From a virus (Duplodnaviria > Heunggongvirae > Uroviricota > Caudoviricetes): DNA of 28,635 nucleotides. The DNA is taken from positions 1 through 28,635 of IMG/VR virus record IMGVR_UViG_3300037418_000775, one strand, 5' to 3'. The position numbers and the translations under genes were made by a program. Below the pieces are notes generated by a model, which did no database searches, was not told where the DNA came from, and was given only the letters and a program-made list of their open reading frames with translations. Positions 1 through 26,231 of this stretch are shown here, piece after piece; within the stretch, counting starts at the first letter, position 1, and each line of letters opens with the position of its first letter.

Positions 1-289
1 CATGGTCGCCTTTCTTGCAAAGCGGACAAACTTCACCCACAGTACCGACTTGTGCGCCGCACTCGCACGGACGAAAGCCTGTTCTGATTCGCCGCTTGGC
101 TTTGCAGGCACACAATATGCGGCTGTTTGGCAATTCTGTTTTACTCTCACCATCCACTTTACTCTCACCATCCACGGCTACGATAGCCTCGATGGTATCC
201 AGGATACGTTGATCTCGATCCTGAGCGTGCTCCCCGGGCTGGCGAGGGGAGGCAAGAGCCTCCCTGATGCGGCCAATCCTATTATCCAT
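1..289 (-). CDS. Cys-rich (putative Zn-finger) protein, truncated at window edge; not in ORF track
   Basis: ATG at 289 overlaps the stop of 282..689; open frame to base 1: MDNRIGRIREAL...LCACKAK...PCECGAQ...VCPLCKKGDH. Confidence 0.7.
   Translation of the reverse strand, partial: MDNRIGRIREALASPRQPGEHAQDRDQRILDTIEAIVAVDGESKVDGESKTELPNSRILCACKAKRRIRTGFRPCECGAQVGTVGEVCPLCKKGDH
140..175. repeat. Exact 18-bp tandem duplication TTTACTCTCACCATCCAC x2 (in-frame VDGESK x2)
   Basis: Copies read directly at 140-157 and 158-175. Confidence 0.95.
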
Positions 290-689
290 TGAACCGCCTC
301 GTTTCCTCACGCAACTCAGAGGCCATAGCCTCGATCTCGGAATAGTCCTTAGGAGCGGCTTTGAGATAGACTTTCTCATGCCGCTTGAAGATCAAGACCT
401 GGTAGTCCGAAGGCCACGCCTTCTCGTCGCTCTTGGTGTAGACCATGTAGCAGTTCTGCTTGTACTCCCGCATGAAACACGCGCCTACCACCAGGTCCGA
501 GAAGGGGACCAGACGCATGGTGTCATCCAGGCTACTCTGTACGGCTTGTTGCGGCGTGTGGGTGAGGATTTTACCGCCGTCTTGCTTAGGGACAGACTCC
601 GCCCTCGGCTTAGCCGTTGTTGCCTTGGTCTCTTGACCTGGTAGGCCGGACATCTGTCCGCCTACGAAGTTGAACTCGTTTTGTTTCAT
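282..689 (-). CDS. Hypothetical protein with N-terminal NExNFVGG tag (copy 1)
   Basis: 135 aa, SD GAGGAG, ATGA overlap with upstream gene; starts MKQNEFNFVGGQMSGLP. Confidence 0.85.
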   Translation of the reverse strand: MKQNEFNFVGGQMSGLPGQETKATTAKPRAESVPKQDGGKILTHTPQQAVQSSLDDTMRLVPFSDLVVGACFMREYKQNCYMVYTKSDEKAWPSDYQVLIFKRHEKVYLKAAPKDYSEIEAMASELREETRRFNG

Positions 690-853
690 GCTTTCTCCTC
701 GGGGTGATCATGTAAGTCAAGGTCACTTACGAAGAACGCTGCTCCTCCCTCGTTCTTGACGAGGTACTTGCCATAATTGGCCGAAGCCCGCTGCCTGTCG
801 CGTCCGATGACTGTGACCTTTTGCCAGCCATGGAACGGCATATAAACATACAT
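686..853 (-). CDS. Small hypothetical protein (55 aa); not in ORF track
   Basis: SD AGGAGG; MYVYMPFHGWQKVTVIGRD...HPEEKA*; stop overlaps next ATG (ATGA). Confidence 0.7.
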   Translation of the reverse strand: MYVYMPFHGWQKVTVIGRDRQRASANYGKYLVKNEGGAAFFVSDLDLHDHPEEKA

Positions 854-865
854 TCCCTATACCTC

Positions 866-991
866 CTAGAGATAGTGCCCCGGGTCGTGCCGCTTAGCGC
901 GGTCATACTCCGGGGTCCTGAATTGAATGGCGATTACCCAGACGACCCAGGCCAGCAACGGGCCGAAGGCGATGGCCAGGAACTCTATCAC
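866..991 (-). CDS. Small membrane protein (41 aa); not in ORF track
   Basis: GTG overlaps upstream TGA; MIEFLAIAFGPLLAWVVWVIAIQF is one hydrophobic helix; fills the gap exactly. Confidence 0.6.
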   Translation of the reverse strand: MIEFLAIAFGPLLAWVVWVIAIQFRTPEYDRAKRHDPGHYL

Positions 992-1938
992 GACGCCGTA
1001 GCCTCTGCGATGATCTCGGCCAGAGTGTCGGCCTCGTCTTCCGGGTTCTTGGTCTTGTCACCACGGGCCTTGGCTTTCTTCTCAGCCGTCTTCATCACGG
1101 GTTCCTCGGCGCGAATTGTTGCCGGGTGGCTGACGGCGACCTTGATCTCACACCCCATTCCGATAGCATCGGCATCGGACTTGAATACGTCCGCCGTGGT
1201 TCTCAGCATCTTTAGGGTTACAGGTGCCGCTTTCGCCGCGTCATAGGCCATCTTAGCCTCAGCCAGCCCTAAGTCTGTCGCAGCACGGATAGCCTTGATA
1301 GCCTTGATAGGTTCGGAGCAGCAGGTAGTCGTAGAGATGACGACCTCGACCTCTTCGGTCTCACCAACTTCGTCGTCGTCGCGGGCAATCTTGGACTTGA
1401 CCAGGTAGTTGCGAAGCAGGCCCGAGATGTTGCTGTACTCGGCCTCCTTCGAGATGAACTCCTCCTTGTCTTCGACGGTCTCTTCCTCGGCATCCACGTC
1501 TTCAGCCATGAGCGCCACCATATCGGTATCGCCCAGGCTGTCCAGGATACCCTCGATGAGGAAGTCCTCGCTATCCACGCCCTCCGTAGAGGGGGCGATG
1601 ATAGCGGCCAACTTTGCCTCTGCGATCTGACCCTCGGCCATGTCACGCAGTTTATTGAACAACTGTCCCTGCGTGAGGAAGGCGATGCGCTTATTGAACC
1701 AGCGCCCCACCACACCGGAGACAGGCTCATCAATGGGACCGCCGTTCTGATCCGCCACCTTCGGGGATGCAGTAAGCAGACCCAAGGCTTTGAGAGGCAG
1801 GGTAGTATTGCCCTGGATTGCTAACGAGATATCTCGAATCTCGTCCGACATGAACTCCTGCTCCCGATTGCTGTAGAGCATGGACGGGTAGAAGAACTCG
1901 TACGTGTCAGGGCATACGATGATGAATGGAGTGGTCAT
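988..1938 (-). CDS. Acidic protein with ribosomal L7/L12 C-terminal (ClpS-like fold) domain
   Basis: IKAIKAIRAATDLGLAEAKMAYDAAKAAPVTLK...GCEIKV resembles the bL12 CTD pattern (IKxxRxxTxLGLxEAK...APxxxK); SD GGAGG; alternative start 1851. Confidence 0.7.
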   Translation of the reverse strand: MTTPFIIVCPDTYEFFYPSMLYSNREQEFMSDEIRDISLAIQGNTTLPLKALGLLTASPKVADQNGGPIDEPVSGVVGRWFNKRIAFLTQGQLFNKLRDMAEGQIAEAKLAAIIAPSTEGVDSEDFLIEGILDSLGDTDMVALMAEDVDAEEETVEDKEEFISKEAEYSNISGLLRNYLVKSKIARDDDEVGETEEVEVVISTTTCCSEPIKAIKAIRAATDLGLAEAKMAYDAAKAAPVTLKMLRTTADVFKSDADAIGMGCEIKVAVSHPATIRAEEPVMKTAEKKAKARGDKTKNPEDEADTLAEIIAEATAS

Positions 1939-2241
1939 TTATTGTACCTCCGGCTTGTCGCTGACGACGGACATCTCTTCGTTGCGCCCACACTCCGGGC
2001 ACTTCAGGAAGAAGCGGACTTTGTTGTTGAGATTGAGGGTGACTCGGTGGGACTTGGCCTGGTATACCAGCGCAGTCCAACCGAGCATGAACAACCAGAC
2101 TAGGTCCATGAGTCGCGGCTCCTGGCCCAGAATACGCCCCCACACAAGGCAGAGGAAGACGACGATAGTCAGCACCTTCGCAAAGGCGCATTGAACCTCG
2201 TCGTCTTTCCAGTACACTAAGAATGCTTTCAGATATTTCAT
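1939..2241 (-). CDS. Membrane protein (2 TM) with C-terminal CPEC motif
   Basis: Two hydrophobic segments; CPECG; ATGA overlap with upstream gene. Confidence 0.75.
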   Translation of the reverse strand: MKYLKAFLVYWKDDEVQCAFAKVLTIVVFLCLVWGRILGQEPRLMDLVWLFMLGWTALVYQAKSHRVTLNLNNKVRFFLKCPECGRNEEMSVVSDKPEVQ

Positions 2242-2945
2242 ACCCCCGCTCCTTTCACAGCAAAGCCTTTGGGAATGTCAAGCCGTTCTTTCTGACGGCG
2301 TAGGATTCTATCCACCCCGAAGCCGTCCAGGTTGTCGTCGTCCATCAGGTCAGACGGGAAGGCCAGGAACCGTAGCCCCTGCGCCGGACCATCCACCACC
2401 TGCACCGCATACAGCGGACACAACCCGACCGTGATGGTGTGTCCGGGCTGGTGTTCGACTACCCGGACACGATGGGTGAACGGTTCGAGGAACGGCACCG
2501 CACCGATCTTCGAACTCACCGGGGCTGAGGGAAGACCGGGAATGATACTCGCCAGGAACTCCGGGCTGTTGTTCTTGGTGATGTACTCATCCCGTAACGT
2601 GGTACGCATGATGAGCCACAGTTCGTCGCCCACTTTGAAGCGGCGTTCGATGCCCGTGCCTGCTTCCCACAGAAAGCCCTTGGGGTGCAACTCAACGGGT
2701 CGCCCCATCATGTCCGTCATCAGGACGGTGGACATGGGATTGATTGGCTCGCGTTTGTCGCGTTCCGTACGAACAACCCCAATGCTCGGTACTACCCCGC
2801 CACGATCCCGAACCCGGAACACCCGGGATGATGACCCGCCATTCTTACTCGGAGTGGGGGTAGAGGAAGGGGTGGACGTGGCGGGCAAGCCCGCCATCGA
2901 TCCACCCACGAAGTTCTGTTCGTTCTTCTCTTCTTTGTCTGTCAT
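2238..2945 (-). CDS. Hypothetical protein with N-terminal NExNFVGG tag (copy 2)
   Basis: 235 aa, SD GGAGG; MTDKEEKNEQNFVGGSMAGLP then S/T/P linker; immediately downstream of the vWA gene. Confidence 0.85.
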   Translation of the reverse strand: MTDKEEKNEQNFVGGSMAGLPATSTPSSTPTPSKNGGSSSRVFRVRDRGGVVPSIGVVRTERDKREPINPMSTVLMTDMMGRPVELHPKGFLWEAGTGIERRFKVGDELWLIMRTTLRDEYITKNNSPEFLASIIPGLPSAPVSSKIGAVPFLEPFTHRVRVVEHQPGHTITVGLCPLYAVQVVDGPAQGLRFLAFPSDLMDDDNLDGFGVDRILRRQKERLDIPKGFAVKGAGV

Positions 2946-2951
2946 TGTTGT

Positions 2952-4940
2952 TTACCTCCGGCCTCTGACTTTGCTAGAGACCATACGTTTCAAGTGATGG
3001 CCGAGCACGGGACCAACCGTGTCGTCCGTCACCTTATCAGCAAAGCGATCCCCGACGTAGCGTTTTGCCACCCGAGCATCCACTCCGAGGGTCAGGACGA
3101 CCATCTCGATCCCCTTACCCTTCATGTACTTGATGGCCTCGTCCGTACCGTGGTCGGTGAACTGCCCATCGGTGAGCACGATACACAGACGGCGGTCTAC
3201 GTTCAAGTCCTTCATCTGGTTAGCGATCTGGATGAACGCATCGGCGTTCTCGGTCCCGCCGTCTACGTTGCCCGTAAGGTCCGTCATAATGTACTGCTTC
3301 TTCTCCTGTGACAGCGGCTCTTTGAAGCCCTTGACGACGGTGAAGTTGTCATCGAAACGGAAGATACCGAGTTTCACCTCACGGTACTTAGCGATGGCCT
3401 CGGTGAGTGCCACGCAAAGCCTCGTTGCGAACGTCCACTTGGCACCGTACTTGCCGCTGTTCTCGTGGCCTGATGACCACGGCTGATAGATGCGCTCGTA
3501 GTACGCGGCACGACGCCCTGACGACGCCTTACCCGGGACCTCAATGCGCTCGCCCAATCCACCGAAGGCTTCGGGGGCAGGACGCACGTCCTCTTCGAAC
3601 GACTGCATCGAACCCGACGCATCCACCAACAGCGCCACCGCATAGGACAACTGCCCATGCTGATCCGGTTTCGAGTACACTCGGTCGCTGTCCGTGATCT
3701 CCGCACGGATGAGCGAACGGCTGTGCAACTTGCCGGACTTGTAGCCGGGTGACCGGGTAGCAATCTCGTTCTCGCGGAGATACTTACGGGTTTGCTTCAC
3801 GATGGGGCCAATCATGTTCGAGGCCGACATACGAACCAGCGACCATGCAGGCCCTTGATACGGGGCCTTCTTCTTGGTGGTCGGGGGGCTAAAGCCAGCA
3901 CCACCGCCGCCGTTGTTGAACGAGGACTCCGGTTCTCCCGGTGTGCCTTTATCGTACTCGTCTTGGAGTTCGGTGATTGGCGGGGGCCCGCCCTTGCCAC
4001 CCTTGCCGTCGTCTTTGTCCTTACCGTCCTTACCATCGCCGTCGCCCTTGCCGTCGTCCTTGTCCGGTTTGTCCTTACTCTTACCGGAACCGGAACCACC
4101 GGAGCCAGAGCCTTCACCTTCTCCCTCGCCTTCGCCGTCACCGTCGCCGTCACCGTTCTTCGGTTGCTCGGGTGGCTCGTAGTATTCTTCGCGGAACTTG
4201 ACGAACGAGGGAACCAGCGAGGAGAACCGTTCCATGAGTTGGTCAACCGATGATGCACGGCGCAGGTCTTGAACTGCGTCCACCGTGAGTTCATCCCACG
4301 GCATATCTTCCGGCAGGTCTTCGCCCGTGATTGCACCGGATACCAGGCCACGGACTGCGGTCTTGACGCGCTCCCAATATAGGGACTTACCGTCTGCCGT
4401 CAGCGACCCGGGAGGGGACACGTTCTTCAGCATCTCACGGTCTTTGTCCCATTGGTTCTTGCGCCACCCACCGTCCACGCGGGGCAGGTAGGTCTTGTCC
4501 AAGTTCTGGTACTCACCGCGCATGATGCTTTCCATGCGCTCGTCTTCAGCGGCTTCGATGATACTGAAGACGTTGCCCGGATGGATGGCCTTACCCGTCT
4601 TCGAGACCTTGTCTGCCGCAGTTGCTACCCGGCCACAATGTTGCTTGATGTTGTACCGGGACTGCGAGTTGTGAGCGTGGCCGATCTCATGGAAGATGAG
4701 ACCGGGCGCGGCTTGCGGCGGCAGGTCGAGCAACTGCTGACGGTTGTACGTCAGGATGCCCTTCTTGTCACCCCTCGGCGGCTGATAGGTGAAGGCTTCA
4801 CCCGGTCTCATTTCGATGTTGAGTTGCAGGCCGATCATCTCCGTGATGTTGGCCAGAGTTTCAACCGAGAGACGCTTCTCGGTGAAGAGATTGGCCGCTT
4901 CGAGCGACCGAGTTACTGAGTCCAGATCAGTACTTGCCAC
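2952..4940 (-). CDS. CobT/NorD-like vWA protein with N-terminal HExxH putative metallopeptidase domain and G/D/K-rich linker
   Basis: HEIGH (4677-4691) then AEDERME; GDGDGEGEGEGSGS linker; MIDAS elements DASGSM, GGTE, LTDG; adjacent to AAA gene. Confidence 0.85.
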   Translation of the reverse strand: MASTDLDSVTRSLEAANLFTEKRLSVETLANITEMIGLQLNIEMRPGEAFTYQPPRGDKKGILTYNRQQLLDLPPQAAPGLIFHEIGHAHNSQSRYNIKQHCGRVATAADKVSKTGKAIHPGNVFSIIEAAEDERMESIMRGEYQNLDKTYLPRVDGGWRKNQWDKDREMLKNVSPPGSLTADGKSLYWERVKTAVRGLVSGAITGEDLPEDMPWDELTVDAVQDLRRASSVDQLMERFSSLVPSFVKFREEYYEPPEQPKNGDGDGDGEGEGEGEGSGSGGSGSGKSKDKPDKDDGKGDGDGKDGKDKDDGKGGKGGPPPITELQDEYDKGTPGEPESSFNNGGGGAGFSPPTTKKKAPYQGPAWSLVRMSASNMIGPIVKQTRKYLRENEIATRSPGYKSGKLHSRSLIRAEITDSDRVYSKPDQHGQLSYAVALLVDASGSMQSFEEDVRPAPEAFGGLGERIEVPGKASSGRRAAYYERIYQPWSSGHENSGKYGAKWTFATRLCVALTEAIAKYREVKLGIFRFDDNFTVVKGFKEPLSQEKKQYIMTDLTGNVDGGTENADAFIQIANQMKDLNVDRRLCIVLTDGQFTDHGTDEAIKYMKGKGIEMVVLTLGVDARVAKRYVGDRFADKVTDDTVGPVLGHHLKRMVSSKVRGRR

Positions 4941-5187
4941 GATTGATTGCCTCCTTGATCTCCTGCTTCTGCGATTCGGTCAGCGGGTTAATCTTAACCG
5001 CGCCCTGTGCTTTGGCAGCGGCAAGCGCACAGGTTATACAGATGATAACCGTATCGTTCGGGGAGGTGGCCTGAATCTCCCGGGAAGAAGGGGCAACCAT
5101 AACAGGTGCCCCACACTCACTACAGGAGTCCGGGGCTGCCCCCGGGATATTTGCTACCGGACCACAGACGATTGCTTGGTTAGCCAT
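4927..5187 (-). CDS. Small Zn-finger protein between AAA and vWA genes
   Basis: CSECG...CITC; overlaps both neighbours. Confidence 0.75.
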   Translation of the reverse strand: MANQAIVCGPVANIPGAAPDSCSECGAPVMVAPSSREIQATSPNDTVIICITCALAAAKAQGAVKINPLTESQKQEIKEAINRGKY

Positions 5188-6383
5188 TAGAAGCGGGTCC
5201 CGACGAGAGCAGTAACAGCGTCGGTTTCCGCCTTGTCGCCCAGGTTGGCGACGGTGTTGATCACGCAGATTTCGACAGCGCGCTTCACGCTGAACTCCAT
5301 CTCCGTGATGAGTTTGCTGATCTTGACCAGATCACGGGTGGACACGGAGTACACGATGTTCTCCGGGTCTTTCTTCTTCCGAGCCCGGACTTCCGAAGCG
5401 AACCGGACCAGGTTCTTGATGACGTTCTTGTCGAGCGTCGGGAAGTTCGAGGCGAGAATCTTGGCCTCTTTCGCCTCGTCCGGGTAGTCCACGTTGAACA
5501 CGTAGGGCCGCCCCAACTGCGCCAGGTTGAGTTCGTTCGTTCCGGCGTAGGAGGTCGGGTTCATCGTGCCCACCCAGCGGAAGTTCTTGTGGCGCGGGAT
5601 GACCTCGCCGTTGTTGTTGGTGAGTACCAGGTCAGCCCCGGCCTCGTTGATCATCTGGTACACCATCAGCGGGCCCGCTTTGAGGGCATTGATTTCGTCT
5701 GCCAGATAGATGAGGCCGTCACGTACTGCACGGGCCAGCGGGCCGTACTCGTACCCGATGGAGCCGTCCGCACGTTTCACCATCTTGCCGAGGATGTCTT
5801 CCACTTCGGTGTGCGCGTCGTGACCCATACGGATGACGCCCCATCCGAGTTCTTCGCCGTAGTGATAGACTTCGGCAGTCTTACCGACGCCAGCCTCACC
5901 GACGAACAGCAAGGGAATCTCCCCTGCCGCGAAGATGCGGGCTCGTTCCGCCATCTCATCGGAGCCGTCAATGTACTTGAACTTGAGTTTCGGGGACAGC
6001 ACATGGGGCGGTACCATTCGCTCCAGACCGAAGAAGTGGTCCTTATCGGTCTTGAACTTACCTGCCGTGGCGACGGTCGCGGTCTTGCCGCTACCCGTAC
6101 TGCTCGCCGTGGATACGGAACTGTCCGCCTTGGCGATGGTTTCGGACAGCGCCTGTTTGAAGGCGTTGACCGCGCTCGATACGATGGTGGCCTTGTTGTT
6201 CTTCACCATCTCCGGCGTATATCCAGCGGCCTTCATAATCGCCACCCAACGCTCTTGGACTGCGGCGATCTGAGCGGGGCCCAGACTCTTGCTGGACATG
6301 GCCTTGATGTAGGGTTCGGGGAAGTACCACTTCTCGCCACCTACCTCGATGGTTACGAGAGTGTTTCCTGCGGTTCTGCTCAT
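5187..6383 (-). CDS. MoxR-class AAA+ ATPase (CbbQ/NirQ/CobS-like)
   Basis: Walker A GEAGVGKT, Walker B YLADEIN, sensor GTMNP, C-terminal STRDL; SD GGAGG. Confidence 0.9.
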   Translation of the reverse strand: MSRTAGNTLVTIEVGGEKWYFPEPYIKAMSSKSLGPAQIAAVQERWVAIMKAAGYTPEMVKNNKATIVSSAVNAFKQALSETIAKADSSVSTASSTGSGKTATVATAGKFKTDKDHFFGLERMVPPHVLSPKLKFKYIDGSDEMAERARIFAAGEIPLLFVGEAGVGKTAEVYHYGEELGWGVIRMGHDAHTEVEDILGKMVKRADGSIGYEYGPLARAVRDGLIYLADEINALKAGPLMVYQMINEAGADLVLTNNNGEVIPRHKNFRWVGTMNPTSYAGTNELNLAQLGRPYVFNVDYPDEAKEAKILASNFPTLDKNVIKNLVRFASEVRARKKKDPENIVYSVSTRDLVKISKLITEMEFSVKRAVEICVINTVANLGDKAETDAVTALVGTRF

Positions 6384-6465
6384 TAAGTTGGGTCCTCCAT
6401 GTAGTTAAGTGTTAGTAAACAGCGAATGGGGCCAGCCAGCCCCTGAGCGTCCGTACTACCAAAGT

Positions 6466-6495
6466 AGGTTAGCACGTTCCTTCCTCTTGCGTCAA
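6466..6495 (-). promoter_or_regulatory. Possible sigma70-like promoter for the AAA/vWA unit, with degenerate operator
   Basis: Minus strand TTGACG-N18-TAACCT; overlaps CTACC-AAAGTA-GGTTA at 6456-6471. Confidence 0.45.
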
Positions 6496-7271
6496 TCACC
6501 CCCTTTCATAGCCGTGGCTACGATACTGTCAAGTTCGTCGCAGTACTCGCCATCGGCTTCGTCCTCTGATTCGCACTTGTGGGCACAGAGAACTGCTTGG
6601 GTTGAGAATACCGTATTGCACGAGAAGCAGTAGGGGTGTGTGGATTGTAAGTGGGTGTCTCTGTCCTCTCTAGTTGTAAATGTCACGTAGCCACCGGAGC
6701 CGTTGACCGTGCATACTGCACAGATCAGTGAGGGGTCCGGTGGCAGTTTATCCTCAGTAGCCTCTTCCGCATCAGGGTCGCCATATTCGAGTACCGACCA
6801 CCCGTCGCCGGACAGAATATCCCGGACGGCATCCAACAAGTCCGAAGCCCGGTACCAAGTAGTCTGATAAGGAGGGTGGCCGTCTACGTCCTTCTGAACG
6901 GCCTCGACCAACTTAGTCAGTTGCGCCACCATCCACTCTTTTGTGATCTCCGGCTCTGCAGGGATAGACCCGATAATCTCTTCTACCAGGTCAGGCTCGG
7001 CTTCACCGAGAGCCTCTTGGGCTTCGGTGGTGAACGCCACGGTCGCGTCTTCACCCTCCTTACTCGCTGAGAAGTGCCGCTTGTAGTGCTCACTCCCGTC
7101 CGGCTTACGCAGGCCGAGTTTCACCGCGCGAATCTTAACCGCGTTCTCGGTGCGGGCAAACATCTTTGCCACCACCGGGATAGCGGCTTCACCCATCGAA
7201 GCATACTGACCACGCAGGCTAGAATCCTCGGAAGGGGTCCAGGCTCTAAAGCCCTTCTTCGTGAATCCCAT
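6492..7271 (-). CDS. Putative DNA-binding protein (N-terminal HTH/Myb-like, C-terminal Zn fingers)
   Basis: WTPSEDSSLRGQY...IPVVAKMFARTENAVKIRAVKLGL; CAVC...HLQSTH; CFSC...CAHKC. Confidence 0.65.
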   Translation of the reverse strand: MGFTKKGFRAWTPSEDSSLRGQYASMGEAAIPVVAKMFARTENAVKIRAVKLGLRKPDGSEHYKRHFSASKEGEDATVAFTTEAQEALGEAEPDLVEEIIGSIPAEPEITKEWMVAQLTKLVEAVQKDVDGHPPYQTTWYRASDLLDAVRDILSGDGWSVLEYGDPDAEEATEDKLPPDPSLICAVCTVNGSGGYVTFTTREDRDTHLQSTHPYCFSCNTVFSTQAVLCAHKCESEDEADGEYCDELDSIVATAMKGGD

Positions 7272-7273
7272 GA

Positions 7274-7648
7274 CTAATTCTCCTCTCGTCGTGCTTCTTG
7301 TATGGCTTGTTCGACAGCATCGTCGAACACGTCACCGACATTCTCCATAACCTCACGCACTACCCGGTCAAAGTGCGTTCCAGGAATGCCGTGCGCCTCA
7401 AGAGTATACCCCTCGGAAACCTTCGAGGAAAGCAGTCTGTCGTAGACGCCGTCTGCCTGCTCTTTGAACGGGCCGCCATAATAGACCTTGCGATTCCGGT
7501 GAAGACGGTTCGGCTCTAAACTGCCGCGTCTGCCCCACTCCCCGACGACCTGCTCATGGGAGGGTGGGAACGACCATTGAGTGATGCGGTACTCCTTATC
7601 ATGCTTCCCCTCGGTGAAGTACAGCATGACCTCGCGGACCTTGCCCAT
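7274..7648 (-). CDS. Stand-alone WGR-domain protein
   Basis: LYFTEGKHDKEY...EWGRRG...YDRLLSSKVSEGY fits the WGR pattern. Confidence 0.8.
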   Translation of the reverse strand: MGKVREVMLYFTEGKHDKEYRITQWSFPPSHEQVVGEWGRRGSLEPNRLHRNRKVYYGGPFKEQADGVYDRLLSSKVSEGYTLEAHGIPGTHFDRVVREVMENVGDVFDDAVEQAIQEARREEN

Positions 7649-7649
7649 G

Positions 7650-7862
7650 CTACGTGTCCCCCGTTTGGTCGTTTGCGCGGCGTTTGGGTGTGGAAATATC
7701 GCCCGTGCTAGAGGGCAGACTGTCCCCTCCGCTAGGCGGCTTACGAAGATTGATAAAACTCTGGAGCATATTTAGTTCGGCGCTGGCCATGCACCGTATC
7801 TTGGCGGCAAAGAAATCCCACGTTTCTTTATCCACCGTCCCATCCCTCGCTCCGGCTGTCAT
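7650..7862 (-). CDS. Hypothetical protein
   Basis: Likely start ATG 7862 overlapping the upstream TGA; track gives 7880. Confidence 0.6.
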   Translation of the reverse strand: MTAGARDGTVDKETWDFFAAKIRCMASAELNMLQSFINLRKPPSGGDSLPSSTGDISTPKRRANDQTGDT

Positions 7863-7978
7863 TTCCACACCACCATACACAGACAGACCATGATGAACAA
7901 CACGAGCAGGGCTATGGATTCATGGCCCGGTGTGTCCGTGCTGTCCTGGTACTCTTCCCATTCGTCAGTCGGTTTCAT
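7859..7978 (-). CDS. Small membrane protein (39 aa); not in ORF track
   Basis: MKPTDEWEEY...SIALLVLFIMVCLCMVVWK*; overlaps both neighbours. Confidence 0.6.
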   Translation of the reverse strand: MKPTDEWEEYQDSTDTPGHESIALLVLFIMVCLCMVVWK

Positions 7979-8450
7979 TCAGCGCCTCCTCAATGGCAGC
8001 ATCCGAGGCCGCTTCACGGACCTCGGCTTCGAGTACAGCATCGGCTACGACCGATTCGATCTTCTCTTCAGGGATAGGCGGGTGGCCTCGGTACGAGCAC
8101 TCGTGGCAGATGGCCACCAACTTCTGTGCGGGTACCTCCCAATGCCACACAGTATGACGATACCAAAGTGAGGCATTACACCAAGCACAGTCAGGCTGTG
8201 TGAGCAACGGCTTAGTGTCCAGTACGATCTCCCATCCGTCCCGGCGCTGATTCAGTTTGAGCAACTGAGCCTCACGCTTCTCGTAAGTGATAGCGTTCAT
8301 GGCCTGACCACGGTTCGAGTGAACCTTGAACACCGGACTACGCATCGGGATATTCGTAGCCCACTCAGGCATCGCTACCTGTTTGCCTCGGGTCTTGCCG
8401 GGTGTACTACCAGGCAAGCCAGGTGGTGGTGGCGGAAGTTTGTAACTCAC
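7965..8450 (-). CDS. Zn-finger protein with Pro-rich N-terminus
   Basis: GTG start after GAGGAAAGC overlapping upstream TGA; CAWC...CHEC; acidic tail. Confidence 0.65.
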   Translation of the reverse strand: MSYKLPPPPPGLPGSTPGKTRGKQVAMPEWATNIPMRSPVFKVHSNRGQAMNAITYEKREAQLLKLNQRRDGWEIVLDTKPLLTQPDCAWCNASLWYRHTVWHWEVPAQKLVAICHECSYRGHPPIPEEKIESVVADAVLEAEVREAASDAAIEEALNETD

Positions 8451-8599
8451 GCTTTCCTCGCTTTCAGATAGCCACGTTGTTCCCACTTGACTCTGGCAGT
8501 ATGGTAGGCGATGACCATACTCGAACCGTTGGCCTTGGCCCGATTCGCTTTGGCGTTGCAGAGTCCGAACAGTCGGGCTCTGCGATGCTCAATGTTCAC
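8447..8599 (-). CDS. Small basic protein (50 aa)
   Basis: GTGA overlap with 8596..8946; distal part of track ORF 8447..8674. Confidence 0.55.
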   Translation of the reverse strand: MNIEHRRARLFGLCNAKANRAKANGSSMVIAYHTARVKWEQRGYLKARKA

Positions 8600-8946
8600 G
8601 CCACCGCACACTTGTTGACGAAGGCCTCGGGAACGTCCGACCCTGGTGGCATGACCCGGTAGTACGTATGCCACACCAGATCACCGTTGTGGTGAAGCGT
8701 GGTGCCAACGAACGTCCACAGACCAGAAGGTACCGCGTGACCTGTGGCGACGATAAGGAACTCCAGGATACGTTCGTTCGCCTCGACCTTCTGCGTGGGC
8801 TCAACCTCGATGTAGACTACGAGATTGTTATGCTGGCTGGCCACGCTGAGGACACGGGCCCCTGGCCCGACAGCAATGCGGTCCTGTATGATCTCGGTGA
8901 ATCCCTTGCTCAGGTCGAGCAGCGTGAACTTGTGAACGGTTCTCAT
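8596..8946 (-). CDS. Conserved phage protein of unknown function
   Basis: Pattern GARVLSV..Q...V...R..F.IVATGH......FVGT....G.LVWH is familiar from many phage genomes. Confidence 0.7.
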   Translation of the reverse strand: MRTVHKFTLLDLSKGFTEIIQDRIAVGPGARVLSVASQHNNLVVYIEVEPTQKVEANERILEFLIVATGHAVPSGLWTFVGTTLHHNGDLVWHTYYRVMPPGSDVPEAFVNKCAVA

Positions 8947-9434
8947 TCGTCGTCCTCAGGGTCCTCAGGCTCAGACTCGGTGTCATTGGCCAACTTACGC
9001 AACTTCGTAGCGAACCACGTAAGCGTCTTATTGCGCTGTTCACGAACGGCCCTGTCGGTGTCATTGATGGTACCGTCTGCACCGCATCGCATCCCCTCGC
9101 ACTCCTCGGCCAAATCCAGGAGCGGCGTCTTCTCCATCAGGTCGTCGCCTTCGCCACCCGGCTTGAACGTGGTGATCCGAATCTCGACGCACTCAATGTC
9201 CTTGGCCGGGTAGGAAGCGAGGCATCTCTCGATGAGTTCCTCGGCCTTCTCGTAGGCCTCAGTCCAGGTAGCGGGCGGCGTGTAGCCGTCAGCGGTACCG
9301 GGCCACATCCCGACCGACATACGTGCCGCGTTCATCGGGTCCCCCTTGACCTGGAAGGTGGCCTTAACGTAGAACGTCCCCGGTTGTTTGCTGTTGCTGT
9401 ACTTCAGCGTTTTTCTGAGATAGTGCTTACCCAT
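8943..9434 (-). CDS. Hypothetical protein
   Basis: Likely start MGKHYLRK at 9434 (SD GAAGGA), overlapping the upstream stop. Confidence 0.7.
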   Translation of the reverse strand: MGKHYLRKTLKYSNSKQPGTFYVKATFQVKGDPMNAARMSVGMWPGTADGYTPPATWTEAYEKAEELIERCLASYPAKDIECVEIRITTFKPGGEGDDLMEKTPLLDLAEECEGMRCGADGTINDTDRAVREQRNKTLTWFATKLRKLANDTESEPEDPEDDE

Positions 9435-9711
9435 TCGGGTCCTTCTCAGAAGTGACGGTGACGGCCATGATGGACGGTTCCACCCCCCATGCCCGGTTGA
9501 CCAGGCGATTGAAACTCTTGCTCGCATGGCCCGGCCGCACTTGAGTAACGCCGTGGTTATCGGTCTCGTCGCCCTCTTCGGGGTCGGGACCAAACTCGAC
9601 TACGGCGAAGAAGGGCAGGCCGTTGTCCTCGCACAGTTTCGCCAAACGCAGCAACTCCGGGGCGATCTTCTCGTCGTAGAACTGCTCGGCGTTCTCGCAA
9701 TAGGTACTCAT
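9427..9711 (-). CDS. Hypothetical phage protein
   Basis: 94 aa; YDEKIAPELLRLAKLCEDNGLPF; ATGA coupling. Confidence 0.75.
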   Translation of the reverse strand: MSTYCENAEQFYDEKIAPELLRLAKLCEDNGLPFFAVVEFGPDPEEGDETDNHGVTQVRPGHASKSFNRLVNRAWGVEPSIMAVTVTSEKDPNG

Positions 9712-10259
9712 TTCCCCTCCACTTCTGCGGCGATAGATTCTTCCAGAGCCTTATCGTTCTGGTGGATACGCTCGATGATGGGCTGGATGATCTTCCAGTC
9801 CTCACGGTGCATCAAACGGCACCGCCCGAAGCACGGGAGGCCGTTGATAGCCGTAGCCATCGGGGCATCCATGTCCAGGTAGGCAAAGATGAACGCGAGA
9901 TTCTCTCGCAGTTCATCGGGGTGGAACGGGTCCAGTCCCCCGAACATGATGGGCATGAAGTGCAAGCCTACATCCTCGGCCCGCATCATGTCGCTGTGGT
10001 ACACTTGGTTCGCCTTGTACTTGTTGACGAACTCCAGAATCTCGGCCTTGTCCATGCGGCGAAGCGGCGGACATGATGCACGGTCACGCTTCTCAACCGG
10101 GATGGGGGCGAACTCCCCCTCCTTGACTCGTTCGGTGCCCTGGTAGAAACCACGGCCCTTACGCGGCGAACTATCGCTCAAGTTCGCGGCCTTCGTGGTG
10201 GGCTGTTGCTGTGTCACGCCGGATACATCCCCTCCGACGAAGTTGTTCTCGTTAGGCAT
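9708..10259 (-). CDS. Hypothetical protein with N-terminal NExNFVGG tag (copy 3)
   Basis: Likely start ATG 10259 (MPNENNFVGGDVSGV), overlapping the stop of 10252..10548 and preceded by GGAG; 183 aa. Confidence 0.8.
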   Translation of the reverse strand: MPNENNFVGGDVSGVTQQQPTTKAANLSDSSPRKGRGFYQGTERVKEGEFAPIPVEKRDRASCPPLRRMDKAEILEFVNKYKANQVYHSDMMRAEDVGLHFMPIMFGGLDPFHPDELRENLAFIFAYLDMDAPMATAINGLPCFGRCRLMHREDWKIIQPIIERIHQNDKALEESIAAEVEGK

Positions 10260-19586: not shown

Positions 19587-20348
19587 ATGGCCCAATGTCT
19601 CGAATGTATAGCCGAGACCGGGTCGTCCAAAGAGTTTAAGACACTCGTAACTCACCTCCCGAAGCACGTCCTCTCTGTTGAGGACTACCGGGCCAAGTAT
19701 GGTGAGGATGTCGAGGTCGGCTACGTCATCGCCCCGAAGACGAAGACCGTAGCCTCACCGCCTCCTACGGCGGACGACATTCTCAACGCATTGGAGATGC
19801 CAGTACTCGACCCGAACGAGGTCGTTACGACTTCCCTCGATGCTTCAGAGAAGAAGTTCTTTGAACAGCGGTATGCCTTTCTCATGCGGTCTGCCGAAGA
19901 CGACCGCGCCCTCGAAAGCCAGATTCGTGACATCGTCATGGGTGAGATTACCCTCATGCGGTATCAGAAGGAACTGGCCAAGATCACCGGGTCCCTCGGG
20001 ACTTCGGCTGGTCTGAAGAGGCTTCCTGATGCCAAGGCCATCCAGACGCTCATCAAAGAGTTACGGACTCAGAACCTGGCTGATATCAAATCTCTCAACC
20101 TGACTCGTGAGCAGAAACAGGCTCAGCGTAAGTCAGTTGAGACTACCCCGTCACGCCTACTCTCTCGGTACGCGCAGTTTATAGCCGCGCTGACACCGGA
20201 GCAACTCGCCCGCCAACGCGAGGACGAGTTAGAGGCGGCGGCCCGATTCCAAGTAAATTTACGCAGACTCCTCGACCTGGTACCACAAGATGCTATCCTT
20301 GCCGAGGAGAGCGTGGGAGAGGACGACGAGGACGAGGATGCTGAGTAG
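19587..20348 (+). CDS. Probable terminase small subunit with Ros/MucR-like Zn-finger N-terminus
   Basis: Directly upstream of and overlapping terL; CLEC...FKTLVTHLPKH...EDYRAKYG; helical body and acidic tail. Confidence 0.55.
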   Translation: MAQCLECIAETGSSKEFKTLVTHLPKHVLSVEDYRAKYGEDVEVGYVIAPKTKTVASPPPTADDILNALEMPVLDPNEVVTTSLDASEKKFFEQRYAFLMRSAEDDRALESQIRDIVMGEITLMRYQKELAKITGSLGTSAGLKRLPDAKAIQTLIKELRTQNLADIKSLNLTREQKQAQRKSVETTPSRLLSRYAQFIAALTPEQLARQREDELEAAARFQVNLRRLLDLVPQDAILAEESVGEDDEDEDAE

Positions 20349-22203
20349 CACTCACTTCTGGATTCCACGTATCACCCTGCCTCCTGGTATCAATGTCCCT
20401 GAGGTCATGGTGCCGGACGTGGTGGATGCCGCCAAGGACGATATCCTGGTGGCCGATGCGATCTTCCTCCCGAACTCAGGTGAACTCTTCCCGTTTCAAC
20501 GGGTAACCATGAAGGGCCTCGCGGATCACAAGGTCTGCTTCATTCAGGGCTGTCGTGGTAGTTCTAAATCCTGGGTCGTTGCTCGCTACCTCTTAGTCGA
20601 GGCGCTTCGCAACAAGATCAAGATTGTCTGTACGGGACCGACCTTCCGTCAGGCCATGATCCCCTTCCAGTACATCCTGGAGTTCATCGAAGAAAACTCA
20701 GGTACGGAACTGGCCTGCGACCTCGGTCGTGAGATTGAATCAATCACGACGGGTGGCTCTAAGGGTGAGGCAGTCATCAAGTTCCGCAACGGGTCAGTCA
20801 TCAAGGCTCTCCCGATGGGTAACGGTGCTCGACTGCGTGGTGAACGCGCCGACATCCTGGTCTGTGATGAGTTCTTTCTCATGGAGAAGACGATGTATAA
20901 ATCTCACATCGTCCCCTTCCTACTCGGTCACAAGCCCCTGACTTCCATCGGGCCGAAGTTGATTATGTCAACCTCGGCTGAGTACGAAGACTCGTATGCC
21001 TACAACGTCTTTACCCGGATGGTACTGCCGAACATCGAGCGCGAGAACAGGCTCGTGGCGGCGGACCCGGACTACCAGCGCAAGTATATAGCGTTCGACT
21101 GGAACATCCTGGACCTGAAGGCCCAGCGGCTCCCGAACGGTACGGTTTACAAGATCGACCGCGACGTGATGTCCATCCTCCTTGAGGGTGCTGACGAGAA
21201 CGAGAGGCAGCAGGTTCTCTTCAACCGTTGGATTGGGTTGAGCGGGCAGTTCATGCCCACCAACCTCATCGAGAAGATGCAGCGCAAGGACATCAAGATT
21301 GAGCACGAGGCTCAGCCCGACTGTGCGTACAGTCTGGCCATTGACGTTGCTACCACGCCAGAAGGCGACCACTTCGTCATTCACGTCTTGAAGTTCCTGG
21401 GTGACCGCAAGTGCGCCATCGTTAACACCTACATGGATAAGGGCCTTTCGGCTGATGAGATGGCCTGGTACATTCATCAATTCAATCAGAAGTTCCGACC
21501 GGAATGGATTGTTATGGACAAGGGCGGAGGCGGCCTATTTGTGTCGCAGAGCCTCTCAAAGCGTAAACTCATCTTCCAGAACGGCAGCGAGAAGAAGATT
21601 GATATCCCCATCCTAGAGCACGACGAGACTCGTGCGATAGATGGCGACAAGAAGTTGATCCTCACTCGCCCCATGGACGATAAGGTCCGGGCCTCGTTCG
21701 CGGGTGACCGGGTACGCGGTGGTGAGCATATCTCCTCTGAAGACGTGTTCCTTGACCTCCTTTATAATGGCATCCGTCAGACCCTCTCCAAGGTGGACGA
21801 TAGGGGCAAGTGCCTGACCTTCCATATCCCTGAAGAGGCCGGAGACCAAGGCGACGAGTTCGACCGTTCCGAGATCAAGATTCTCTCAGATATCAGAGAC
21901 TCGATTCATCAGTTGAAGTTCCTCACGCTCAAGTACAACGTACTGGCTGACGGAACTAAAGAGATTGCGCGTAGCAAGGTTAACAAGGTTCCCCTGTTCA
22001 CCTGGAAGAGTCAGAACAAGGACGGTGCGTCCGCGTTCTGCTACGGCTACATCGCCTACAATCTTCACTACCGTGACGCACGAGGCATGGAGAGTATCCA
22101 AGGCCTGCCCCGGGTCAATCCGATCCGGTACGACGACTTCAAGCGGTTTGAGCATCTGCCTGAGGACCCGTCCCAATCCGTCAACCTCTTCAAACCTAGA
22201 TAG
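20338..22203 (+). CDS. terL: Terminase large subunit
   Basis: Walker A-like GCRGSSKS, RGERADILVCDE Walker B, RNase H-like nuclease AIDVA...MDKGGGG...KDGA; likely start 20338 behind GAGG. Confidence 0.9.
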   Translation: MLSSTHFWIPRITLPPGINVPEVMVPDVVDAAKDDILVADAIFLPNSGELFPFQRVTMKGLADHKVCFIQGCRGSSKSWVVARYLLVEALRNKIKIVCTGPTFRQAMIPFQYILEFIEENSGTELACDLGREIESITTGGSKGEAVIKFRNGSVIKALPMGNGARLRGERADILVCDEFFLMEKTMYKSHIVPFLLGHKPLTSIGPKLIMSTSAEYEDSYAYNVFTRMVLPNIERENRLVAADPDYQRKYIAFDWNILDLKAQRLPNGTVYKIDRDVMSILLEGADENERQQVLFNRWIGLSGQFMPTNLIEKMQRKDIKIEHEAQPDCAYSLAIDVATTPEGDHFVIHVLKFLGDRKCAIVNTYMDKGLSADEMAWYIHQFNQKFRPEWIVMDKGGGGLFVSQSLSKRKLIFQNGSEKKIDIPILEHDETRAIDGDKKLILTRPMDDKVRASFAGDRVRGGEHISSEDVFLDLLYNGIRQTLSKVDDRGKCLTFHIPEEAGDQGDEFDRSEIKILSDIRDSIHQLKFLTLKYNVLADGTKEIARSKVNKVPLFTWKSQNKDGASAFCYGYIAYNLHYRDARGMESIQGLPRVNPIRYDDFKRFEHLPEDPSQSVNLFKPR

Positions 22204-22211
22204 AAAGGCAG

Positions 22212-23966
22212 GTGGGCCCTCTGGCTCGTCCTAGAAAGACTACCGCGTCAAAGGCTGGTCCTAAACTCCCCGAGACTGTGCTCCCCACGCTCGGGTCGGC
22301 CCCAATCCCTTTGGTCGCCAATGCGGTGCCCTCCTCGCTGGACCCTAACAAGTTCCGCAAGGCCTTCTCTGCTGCGTTCATCGGGAATCGCAACCCGATG
22401 TGGGATGACGAGACTGAACTGGCCACGATGGCCGCCGTCAACCCGGCGTCCCTTGCGTCAGTAGAGCGGGCACTCTCGTTCTCAGCCCTCCCGTTCAGCG
22501 GGGGGTCTGGAATCAATCCTCGCTTCGCCAAGAAGTACCCGGTGGCGGACCTCAACATTCCGCGTGACCCGGTAGCGGTTCTCCAGGTAGCATACAAGTA
22601 CTGCTATGAGAACCCCTTCGTGGCAAAGGCGCTCCGCGTCAAGACAGACTTCCTTTGTAAGGACTTCCATCATCAGACTCATAACGAGACCGTCAAAGAG
22701 TTCTACGATGACCGCGCGATTGACCTACGCCTGAGAACGGTCCTGCCGAAGATCGGCTGGAACCTATTCGGTGTCGGTGTATGCCCCATCTGGTGGGGCG
22801 GGGAAGAAGGCGGACAGATTCAGTTCATCAAGGTTCTGGACCCGCGCACCTGTCATATCATCCATCCCTTCGGGAAGCCCAAACTCTTCCTGAAGATTGA
22901 CCAAAGCATGATCGATGCCGTTCGAGACCCGATGGGCTCGAAAGACATCGCAAACAAGATTCAGTACGACTCGATGCCCCGGTATTGGATTGACCAGATC
23001 GAGGCACACCTTGCGAAGGGTGGAATCGGCCAAGGGCTGATCGAACTCCAAGAAGGGTCGTACACCGTCGTAGAAAACTCCTACGCCCCGATGAGCCGCT
23101 CTGTAGGCTCTCTGGATGGGATTCCGCTTCAGCCTGCGTTTGACGCACTTCAGCGGTATCGGCTCCTTGCCGCTGGCGATTTCGCTATCGCCTGGAACGT
23201 CAAGAACATGATCACCCTCATCTCCGAGGGCGACCCTAAACTTGAAGGCAAAGACTACAAGCCGATGGACGACACCCGTATGGCGCTGCTGGAGGCCAAG
23301 TTCGGCGCTCCCGACCAATCGCTTCAGGTCGTCTGTGATCCTACGACTCAAATAAGGTATGTCGTTCCGCCGATTGAGGTCTTCGACCCCAAGAAGTATA
23401 TGCAGGTGGAGAAAGAGATCAAAGAAGTTCTCAACCTCCCGTCCTTCATGTGGCAGAACGATGGCAAAGGCACCTACGGTGCCGCGATGGCCGAGATCAA
23501 GATGCTCCGTGAGGAGATCGACGCTGTACGCGTCATGCTCCAGGAGCAGTTCTTCCGCCCGCTCTACAAGCGCCTTCGAAAGGGCGCGGGTCGTAGTCCT
23601 GGTTTCAAGGAGAAAGATATCGTTCTCCCCACGTTCGACAACAACAGTCTGCGTGACGACGCTATCTGGCTCTCAGCAATGGCCGACCTCTACAGTCGTG
23701 GCGTACTCTCAGCGGAAACGCTGGCAGATACCTTCGGCCTGAACTTCGAGTACGAAGTTCAGCAGAAGAAAGACGAGCACGAAGACCTCGGCAACACCTC
23801 GACCGGACAACCCGGCGAGCCCATGAACAACACGCCAATGCGCCCCCTGTACGAACCGTCACAGGGCAATCTGAACCCTGTTCGCGAGAAGGGTGGCAAC
23901 GAAGCCAGTCCTGGTAGTGAACCGAGTTCTGGAACCGCTCGGAATCCAAGAAAGAGCGGGAAATAA
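22212..23966 (+). CDS. Portal protein
   Basis: 584 aa between terL and the protease; YENPFVAKALRVKTDF; helical content; disordered tail. Confidence 0.8.
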   Translation: MGPLARPRKTTASKAGPKLPETVLPTLGSAPIPLVANAVPSSLDPNKFRKAFSAAFIGNRNPMWDDETELATMAAVNPASLASVERALSFSALPFSGGSGINPRFAKKYPVADLNIPRDPVAVLQVAYKYCYENPFVAKALRVKTDFLCKDFHHQTHNETVKEFYDDRAIDLRLRTVLPKIGWNLFGVGVCPIWWGGEEGGQIQFIKVLDPRTCHIIHPFGKPKLFLKIDQSMIDAVRDPMGSKDIANKIQYDSMPRYWIDQIEAHLAKGGIGQGLIELQEGSYTVVENSYAPMSRSVGSLDGIPLQPAFDALQRYRLLAAGDFAIAWNVKNMITLISEGDPKLEGKDYKPMDDTRMALLEAKFGAPDQSLQVVCDPTTQIRYVVPPIEVFDPKKYMQVEKEIKEVLNLPSFMWQNDGKGTYGAAMAEIKMLREEIDAVRVMLQEQFFRPLYKRLRKGAGRSPGFKEKDIVLPTFDNNSLRDDAIWLSAMADLYSRGVLSAETLADTFGLNFEYEVQQKKDEHEDLGNTSTGQPGEPMNNTPMRPLYEPSQGNLNPVREKGGNEASPGSEPSSGTARNPRKSGK

Positions 23967-23985
23967 ACAATAAAGGACCTGGTAC

Positions 23986-25641
23986 ATGGCTAAGAACCTA
24001 GCGTCGGTGAAGATGTACTCTTCGCCCGCCGCCAAGCCCCGTGTTACCCCTCCGGCACCTGATTCTACCTACTTTTATACTGCGGGACGTATCCTCAGTT
24101 ACTTCCCTCAGATTAACCGTAACGGAATCACGTTCTTCCGTGAGGACTGCAAGGCCCTTGCGAATACTCTTCTCGCTTCGACGGCAGACATCCAACACGT
24201 CAAACCCGGCTACCCGGTCGCTGACCCTCTCAAGGTCACGCTGAAGAACACCATCTTCAGCGCCATCAGCGCCGTAGAGGAGCACGAGGAAGGCATTGAC
24301 ATTGTCTGCAAAGCCGAGCGCGAAGTCGCAAAGGCGATGGGCTTCACCGAAGAGGACTTCGGTCCCGGTGGTAAGTTTGGGTCGTACTCACAAGAGTGTG
24401 ACTACAATCCTGCGGAGTCCGCGTGGATCGTCGTTGACAAGAACGAGCCCACGAAGATTCTCAAAGAGGTCGCCTACGCGGACGGCCTCGCGATGGGCTT
24501 CAAGATATCTCACGTCGGTGCAGACGGAGACTGGAAGTATCATCTCGTAGACGGCAACCCCGTCTACGTCCGCATCAAGCCTCTGGCTTTCTCGGGAGTC
24601 GGTCACGTTATCACTCCCGCAGACGAATCGGCGGAGATTTATAAACTCGCCGCTTCGCTCGACAGTTGTCGGCAGTTAGCGGGTTTCTACCCGGGCATGG
24701 ATGACATTGGCCCGATCCCGCATGACATGGTTGCAGGAGCAGGCCCTTCGGCTGACCTCCAGCCCTTCGCGTTTGACTTCCTTGAGCATCCCGACCTGCG
24801 AACTGCATCTCTGGATAAGTTCTCTGATAAAGACCAGGAAGACGCCAAGGCGCCCGACGATCATTTTGCGGCTGTTTACTCAGATTTTGACTACGGCAAT
24901 ACCACGGACGGTAAGCCAACTTCTTCTAAGAAGCGCCTATTCCGCATCAAAGACGATAAAGGCAACCTCGACCGTAAACGGTTGGTGGTTGCGTATCATG
25001 GCCTCGCTGGCCTACGCGGCAACGTCCATCTCGCCCAGAATCTGCCTTCGGCAGTCCGTGCTCATGCCCTTGACCTGGTACGTCAGGGTCTCAAGCAAAC
25101 CAAACCCAAAACAAGTAAGGAGACTTCCTCACAAGTGGAACTCAATCAAGAAATTGAGGCTCTGAAGGCCAAAGAGAAAGAACTCTCGGGTGCCAAGGAT
25201 GCGGCTGAGAAAGAACTCGCCACTCTCAAGAGCCAGATCAAAGACCTTGAGGACGCGCAGGCAAAGGCGCTGTCCGCAAAGGACGAAGAGATCAAAGCCC
25301 TCAAGGACGAGGTCGCAGGCTACCAGGCCAAGGAATTGGCCGCTAAGCGCCTGAGCGAACTCGAAGCCGTCCTTCCGTATTCGGATGAAGAGAAGAAAGC
25401 CGAGTCGTTTGGTGAGTTCACCAAGTCGCTGGCTTCGCTCACCGATGACGGTATGAAGATTGCGATCCTGACGCGCCAACTGGAAGCGTCGAAGAAGACC
25501 GCAGTCGCAGCCAAAGAAGTATCGAGCGCAAATGGTGGCAAGGTAGTAACCGACCCCACGGGCGTGTTCGATGTTGCTAAGGCCGTCGCCTCAGTCGAAG
25601 GCGAAGACAAACCGAAAACCGCCGTCGGTTTTCTCATCTAA
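23986..25641 (+). CDS. Prohead protease-scaffold fusion
   Basis: N-terminal INRNG...IQH...SYSQEC...FSGVGHVITPAD protease pattern; C-terminal E/K/A coiled coil. Confidence 0.8.
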   Translation: MAKNLASVKMYSSPAAKPRVTPPAPDSTYFYTAGRILSYFPQINRNGITFFREDCKALANTLLASTADIQHVKPGYPVADPLKVTLKNTIFSAISAVEEHEEGIDIVCKAEREVAKAMGFTEEDFGPGGKFGSYSQECDYNPAESAWIVVDKNEPTKILKEVAYADGLAMGFKISHVGADGDWKYHLVDGNPVYVRIKPLAFSGVGHVITPADESAEIYKLAASLDSCRQLAGFYPGMDDIGPIPHDMVAGAGPSADLQPFAFDFLEHPDLRTASLDKFSDKDQEDAKAPDDHFAAVYSDFDYGNTTDGKPTSSKKRLFRIKDDKGNLDRKRLVVAYHGLAGLRGNVHLAQNLPSAVRAHALDLVRQGLKQTKPKTSKETSSQVELNQEIEALKAKEKELSGAKDAAEKELATLKSQIKDLEDAQAKALSAKDEEIKALKDEVAGYQAKELAAKRLSELEAVLPYSDEEKKAESFGEFTKSLASLTDDGMKIAILTRQLEASKKTAVAAKEVSSANGGKVVTDPTGVFDVAKAVASVEGEDKPKTAVGFLI

Positions 25642-25661
25642 TTAAGGAGCACTCACAGTAA

Positions 25662-26213: not shown

Positions 26214-26231
26214 GGAGCGAACTCACAACAA

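Follow-up and report, generated by a model that had tools for sequence, protein, structure and literature searches.

What leads three small proteins with unrelated bodies, all encoded by one phage, to begin with the same peptide? The question is raised by a stretch of viral DNA of 28,635 nucleotides (hereafter the window), positions 1 to 28,635 of the IMG/VR virus record IMGVR_UViG_3300037418_000775, which represents an uncultured phage with a genome of 92,635 bp, classed as linear and about 90% complete. The three proteins share the tag NExNFVGGx[MV][SA]G[LV], and their genes lie in a leftward arm that also encodes a MoxR/CobS-like ATPase and a divergent CobT-like protein, P0005, which combines an N-terminal HExxH domain with a C-terminal vWA domain. 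Many phages encode CobS/CobT-like (MoxR/vWA) pairs, among them cyanophages, SSU5-like phage-plasmids and jumbo phages, and the pairs are widely annotated as auxiliary genes for cobalamin synthesis; to our knowledge, no substrate, client or recognition motif is known or has been proposed for them. Our analysis points to the tag as a docking motif, probably also a cleavage motif, for the HExxH domain of P0005, with the MoxR ATPase taking part in processing or remodelling of the three clients. This reading draws on a predicted complex, and we consider that it has about an even chance of being right.

Three phage proteins share an N-terminal tag

The tag comprises 13 residues, with the core E-x-N-F-V-G-G-x-M/V-x-G-L/V, and its three copies are encoded on the minus strand. 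The translation of the first tagged gene (282..689; P0001, 135 amino acids) begins MKQ-NEFNFVGGQMSGLP, with the tag NEFNFVGGQMSGL at residues 4-16 (642..680). The second gene (2238..2945; P0002, 235 amino acids) lies just downstream of the CobT-like gene, with 6 nt between that gene's stop and its own start, and its translation begins MTDKEEK-NEQNFVGGSMAGLP; its tag, NEQNFVGGSMAGL, occupies residues 8-20 (2886..2924) and is the copy used in the complex prediction described below. The third gene (9708..10259; P0003, 183 amino acids) is translated as MP-NENNFVGGDVSGVT from its start, with the tag NENNFVGGDVSGV at residues 3-15 (10215..10253). The assigned starts are supported by separate gene calls on near-identical metagenome contigs, which gave proteins of 135 (134 in one contig), 235 and 183 amino acids. 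Additionally, a Shine-Dalgarno-like sequence precedes each of the three starts, and in the third gene the stop of the upstream gene overlaps the start as ATGCCTAA.

A regular expression search in six frames found exactly three copies of the tag both in the window and in the whole genome, all of them N-terminal. When a profile hidden Markov model (HMM) of the tag was run against the six-frame translation of the genome, the three copies scored 81, 69 and 56 bits and the next best match 6 bits, and no degenerate fourth tag was found in the genome with this profile. Furthermore, an all-against-all scan of N-termini recovered the same triad. The motif is far beyond chance, and the common N-terminal tag proposed in the initial annotation is present on the three proteins where it had been located.

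Each tag is followed by a low-complexity segment. Residues 17-40 of P0001 (570..641) are rich in P/T/K/Q and end in PKQDGGK, residues 21-44 of P0002 (2814..2885) are rich in S/T/P and include a natural variant, A22V, and residues 16-38 of P0003 (10146..10214) are rich in Q/T/S and end in SPRKGRG. The linker of about 20 residues, rich in S/T/P/Q, that had been described from the sequence is thus there and leads into a basic/Gly patch, but it is only loosely conserved. A Pro-rich extension resembling these linkers, PPPPPGLPGSTPGKTRGK, is also found at the N-terminus of the longest open reading frame (173 amino acids) at 7965-8486 on the minus strand; gene callers on sister contigs start this gene about 38 codons later (135 amino acids), and it gave no match to the tag HMM.

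The bodies of the three proteins had been described as having no visible similarity. In agreement with this, pairwise BLASTP among them gave alignments confined to the tag and part of the linker, indicating that they are not simple paralogues. Searches of Pfam, PHROGs and NCBIfam with the bodies were empty, and an Atlas search returned weak leads only, for example small phage beta-barrels; P0001 has the body of an orphan small phage protein, and P0003 had no homologue in the searches made. The AlphaFold2 model of P0002 reached a predicted local distance difference test score (pLDDT) of 32, too poor for a fold search. P0002 has a single homologue among 5.8 billion protein clusters, P0006 (46-48% identity), which is encoded on short metagenome contigs belonging to a more distant relative and begins MSKDKD-SESNFVGGAMVGV. 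P0006 occupies the same position as P0002 beside a CobT-like gene, and the adjacency of P0002 and P0005 is kept in three contigs of the relative (L002, L087 and L088).

A candidate partner encoded in the same arm

The leftward arm extends from about 12.7 kb to position 1 and carries all three tagged genes, together with the ATPase and the CobT-like gene, all on the minus strand. P0005 (2952..4940; 662 amino acids) has an N-domain with the motif HEIGH (residues 84-88; 4677..4691) followed by an E/D-rich helix, IIEAAEDERME, then an acidic low-complexity linker rich in Gly/Asp/Lys and a C-terminal vWA domain. The metal-ion-dependent adhesion site (MIDAS) of this domain begins with DASGS (residues 440-444; 3609..3623) and is complete (D440xSxS...T563...D591), all its residues being invariant in the relative. 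The MoxR/CobS-like AAA+ ATPase (5187..6383) matches AAA_5 (4e-11) and CbbQ_C (2e-9) in Pfam and phrog_249 (5e-43). Between the two genes lies one for an 86-amino acid CxxC...CxxC protein (4927..5187) that appears zinc-ribbon-like from its cysteine pattern and has no match in Pfam, PHROG or NCBIfam.

P0005 itself has no match to Pfam CobT or CobT_C, and its matches to VWA_2 and VWA fall just under the Pfam cut-off. Its likeness to CobT comes from comparison of the P0005 gene (2952-4940, minus strand) with two phage loci (L089:5129-7474 and L090:3433-5511). BLASTP aligned P0005 with the CobT of SSU5 (SSU5_049) in the region before the vWA domain (E 4e-7); SSU5_049 has both PF06213 and PF11775, and the HEVAH in its Pfam CobT N-domain aligns with the HEIGH of P0005. 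The cassette resembles MoxR/vWA pairs and the SSU5_050/SSU5_049 pair in its parts: an AAA_5/CbbQ_C ATPase, and beside it a protein in which an HExxH N-domain is joined by an acidic linker to a vWA domain whose MIDAS is complete. Differences from these pairs are that P0005 is too divergent for Pfam CobT and that a zinc-ribbon-like gene is placed between the ATPase and vWA genes. MoxR-vWA pairs in which the vWA protein carries an N-terminal metallopeptidase domain have been noted in group 2.2 jumbo phages, and a role in virion assembly and virion protein processing has been proposed for them (Iyer et al. 2021, PMC7824862).

The tag is predicted to lie in the HExxH groove of P0005

A complex was predicted between full-length P0005 (2-row alignment), with Mg and Zn added, and the first 42 residues of P0002 (4-row alignment of the known tags). 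The interaction prediction score from aligned errors (ipSAE) was 0.77, 0.02 and 0.68 in the three runs, with a median of 0.68, and the best of three controls scored 0.01. Of the 80 solved complexes in our calibration, 58 reach this mark, as do 2 of the 110 mismatched pairs. Contacts agreed between runs in at least 27%, and the pLDDT of the partner was at least 29 and at most 50. The contacting residues of P0002 (5, 7-20 and 22) coincide almost exactly with the conserved core, and those of P0005 fall in three regions: a predicted strand (49-53), the segment 81-99 that includes H84, E85 and H88, and the acidic helix (126-136). The lowest expected error was obtained for F12, V13 and G14 of the tag against E85 and H88. 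A substrate lying in the groove of a zincin would have this arrangement. The model supports binding of the tag in the HExxH groove of P0005 without showing it. Among the destinations that the initial annotation had named for the tag, namely capsid loading, a protease or the AAA+/vWA pair, the last two gain support from this model (0.68 compared with 0.01 for the best control). The vWA MIDAS has been described as a binder of extended peptides (PMC7159879), and the invariant Glu of the tag was also considered as a MIDAS ligand; in the model, however, the tag sits on the HExxH domain, and we make no such claim.

If the pose is right, the three unrelated small proteins would be clients addressed by their tag to a P0005/MoxR machine. 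The tag would lie stretched out in the groove beside the HExxH helix, while the flexible linker of about 20 residues would hold the folded body of the client clear of it; the client may then be clipped near F-V-G-G, or be retained so that the vWA/MoxR pair can remodel it. In this scheme we infer that cleavage takes place, which bond is cut, what the ATPase does and what the biological outcome would be. What would set the system apart from known MoxR/vWA pairs is that three co-encoded proteins carry a peptide predicted to fill the HExxH groove.

Several points weigh against this assignment. Its support so far comes from sequence comparison and a model; this was a single prediction, in which one of three runs scored 0.02 and the partner pLDDT did not exceed 50, and which used thin alignments (2 and 4 rows) and metals that lie outside the calibration. 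The controls were unrelated folded natural proteins rather than scrambled or other disordered peptides, and the high score may simply reflect a zincin-like groove, because many solved structures show extended peptides bound in grooves of this type. The link between the P0005 N-domain and that of CobT is a motif-level alignment (19-26% identity), the N-domain had no sequence match in Pfam, NCBIfam or the PDB, and the AlphaFold2 single-sequence model of residues 1-262 (pLDDT 44) was unusable for a fold search. In addition, only one of the three tagged genes adjoins P0005. Regarding other phages, the homologue in phage hairong has SEIAK at the HExxH position, indicating that catalysis is not universal in the CobT-like family, and the all-against-all scan of N-termini found no comparable common peptide in SSU5, which has an intact HEVAH CobT, so that the reading did not generalise to SSU5 and may not hold for CobT-bearing phages at large. 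The comparison of the three motifs (HEVAH in SSU5, HEIGH here and the degenerate SEIAK in hairong) suggests that phage CobT N-domains are peptidase-like or peptide-binding, and active in some lineages only.

A wider proposal, which we put forward tentatively and would sooner doubt than accept, is that phage CobS/CobT pairs are tag-directed MoxR/zincin-vWA processing machines; the first set of clients to come to light would be the three proteins that this phage encodes alongside its pair, with their lineage-specific N-terminal tag. The tag and its predicted fit in the groove make the function of phage CobS/CobT-like pairs directly testable. If the docking reading holds, it would also yield a small portable peptide for addressing cargo to a MoxR/vWA machine; if it fails, the tag would still illustrate cleanly how a linear motif confined to one phage lineage can be under selection. 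Common N-terminal addressing or processing peptides are already known as a kind; what is new here is the motif, its restriction to one lineage and the predicted partner.

Capsid targeting and cargo loading

An alternative is that the tag binds the interior of the procapsid (scaffold, major capsid protein or portal), and that the tagged proteins are packaged and injected with the DNA. The T4 capsid-targeting sequence (CTS) offers a precedent, since it is likewise a short N-terminal peptide that small phage proteins with no other relationship have in common (IPI-III, Alt and others), and the flexible linker fits it as well (PMC3012670, PMC7697877). The T4 CTS acts inside the prohead core and is cut off by the prohead protease gp21 at L/I-x-E. 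In the present genome the head genes form a module at about 20.3-27.4 kb, but the tagged genes are outside it, in the leftward non-structural arm, and no L/I-x-E site follows any of the tags. No gp21-like prohead protease of the S77 (PF03420) or S78 (PF04586) type was found in the genome, the PF03420 search being one whose control also matched nowhere. Furthermore, the complex prediction offers a specific alternative partner, the CobT-like P0005. The head proteins have no detectable relatives from which an alignment useful for modelling them with the tag could be built. On balance we consider capsid targeting unlikely.

The tag can also be compared with the cargo-loading peptides of encapsulins, in which a short Gly/hydrophobic peptide on diverse cargo is joined through a flexible linker. 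The peptides of family 1 encapsulins are at the C-terminus of the cargo and bind a shell of HK97 fold whose gene neighbours that of the cargo. The phage tag is instead at the N-terminus, and 16-26 kb separate the tagged genes from the putative capsid gene (26232-27428), which is on the opposite strand.

Distribution of the tag and the linear-motif alternative

The tag was searched for well beyond this genome. When 1.84 billion protein representatives were searched exhaustively with hmmsearch, the three proteins of this phage were the only ones at E <= 1e-10; a single further match was a repeat-protein artefact. A word-indexed profile search of 5.8 billion clusters likewise returned only these three. 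At the DNA level, a strict pattern gave 0 matches in viral_contigs, and a relaxed pattern gave 9 in viral_contigs, 44 in metagenome_contigs and 30 in genome_contigs, none of them N-terminal and all internal in unrelated proteins or in tiny open reading frames. Such absence is weak evidence, because the contig collections do not contain the relative's contig L002 and very short motifs score weakly. According to these searches, the tag is known from this lineage and from one orthologue in a relative, and belongs to no known family. This agrees with the initial annotation, which recognised no named family in the motif; its suggestion that the tag is portable fares worse as regards other phages, since beyond this lineage the tag was found only on the relative's orthologue. 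Among the sequences that matched the relaxed pattern, an identical short frame (...LYSTATC-ESNFVGGDVQGFF...) recurs in five viral contigs of IMG/VR (L003, L004, L006, L009 and L011); this LYSTATC-ESNFVGGDVQGFF frame is probably a conserved non-coding or other-frame element, unrelated to the tag.

Restriction to one lineage is what would be expected of a motif tuned to one host, and the tag could accordingly be a linear motif for a host hub or another phage hub: a degron or adaptor site recognised by an AAA+ protease or chaperone of the host, or a site for a host enzyme to which all three proteins must gain access. Linear motifs typically take this form, a short invariant stretch within a disordered N-terminus with a linker after it. 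The tag is, however, unlike the clamp-binding motif, N-degrons and the N-motifs of ClpX as these are generally known, and a phage-encoded partner, P0005, already has support from the model, so we judge a host-directed or other hub improbable.

Selection acts on the peptide

The three copies might also be the relic of a 5'-end duplication, through recombined gene starts, or an RNA-level element such as a translational operator, with no common protein partner. All copies lie in one arm of one genome, and the bases AAC-TTC-GT are identical in every copy, as this explanation would have it. However, AAC and TTC are simply among the preferred codons of this genome, whose codon usage has a high GC content at third positions (high GC3). 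The third positions of the V, G and G codons vary across copies 1, 2 and 3 (GTA/GTG/GTC, GGC/GGT/GGA and GGA/GGA/GGG, respectively) and differ again in the fourth copy, that of P0006, while the residues stay constant. Moreover, the spacing between start codon and motif ranges from 6 to 21 nt. Between P0002 and P0006, identity is 62% in the tag core, 21% in the linker and 46% in the body, and the one variant seen within the lineage of P0002, A22V, falls in the linker. Since the V-G-G codons vary, and since the relative's orthologue retains the tag at 62% identity with a linker down to 21%, the tag is, as judged from these comparisons, under selection at the level of the peptide. The codon differences are as reported in the initial annotation, which had already placed the conservation on the peptide rather than on a DNA or RNA site, and a duplication relic or RNA element is, in our view, very unlikely.

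The least credible alternative, which we discard almost entirely, is a bacteriocin-like double-glycine leader cut after GG by a C39 peptidase exporter: the GG is near the N-terminus, at a distance of 10-15 residues, and position -4 is hydrophobic, but conservation runs five residues past it (x-M/V-x-G-L/V), the Glu is at -7 instead of -8 and the upstream Leu positions of the usual consensus are missing, the leaders would be as short as 10 residues with cargo of 120-220 amino acids, and the genome has no C39 peptidase (PF03412), for which 7 of 14 control genomes gave a match. The analogy with such leaders, drawn when the motif was first described, is accordingly dropped.

Outside phages, insect ENF cytokine peptides are about 23-25 residues long, contain one disulphide and are cut from the C-terminus of their precursors. 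Their motif (ENF-x-GG-C-x-x-G-Y/F; PMC2978622) resembles NFVGGxxxG[LV] at the level of the string. The phage tags, unlike these peptides, are cysteine-free and N-terminal, and we judge the resemblance a chance likeness.

Genome context and neighbouring genes

The phage is very divergent. Megablast and tblastn searches of phage records with the arm, P0002 and P0005 found no close relative, and searches of IMG/VR for related loci with the vWA protein, an alignment of the vWA domain and the ATPase returned nothing. In the head module (19587-27428, plus strand), the large terminase matches phrog_2 (7e-29); no PHROG or Pfam family was assigned to the other proteins, which include the putative portal (22212-23966), a 551-amino acid coiled-coil protein, a 183-amino acid protein and the putative capsid protein. 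Positions 1-136 of the window form a direct repeat of 136 bp (97.8% identity) with genome positions 91420-91556, about 1.1 kb from the right end. The repeat is no terminal overlap; it may have a regulatory role as a dispersed repeat, or may stem from the assembly.

Next to tagged gene 2, a hydrophobic open reading frame of 100 amino acids (1939-2241, minus strand) separates it from a gene for an acidic protein of 316 amino acids (988-1938, minus strand). The hydrophobic frame is missing from the relative's contig L002, where the flanking genes abut. The acidic protein matches the C-terminal domain of ribosomal L7/L12 with 26.8 bits against a Pfam cut-off of 25.9, and its N-terminus, TPFIIVCPDTYEF, is kept in L002. 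The same arm also encodes a DUF7352 protein at 8596-8946 on the minus strand (Pfam 5e-15; phrog_3848).

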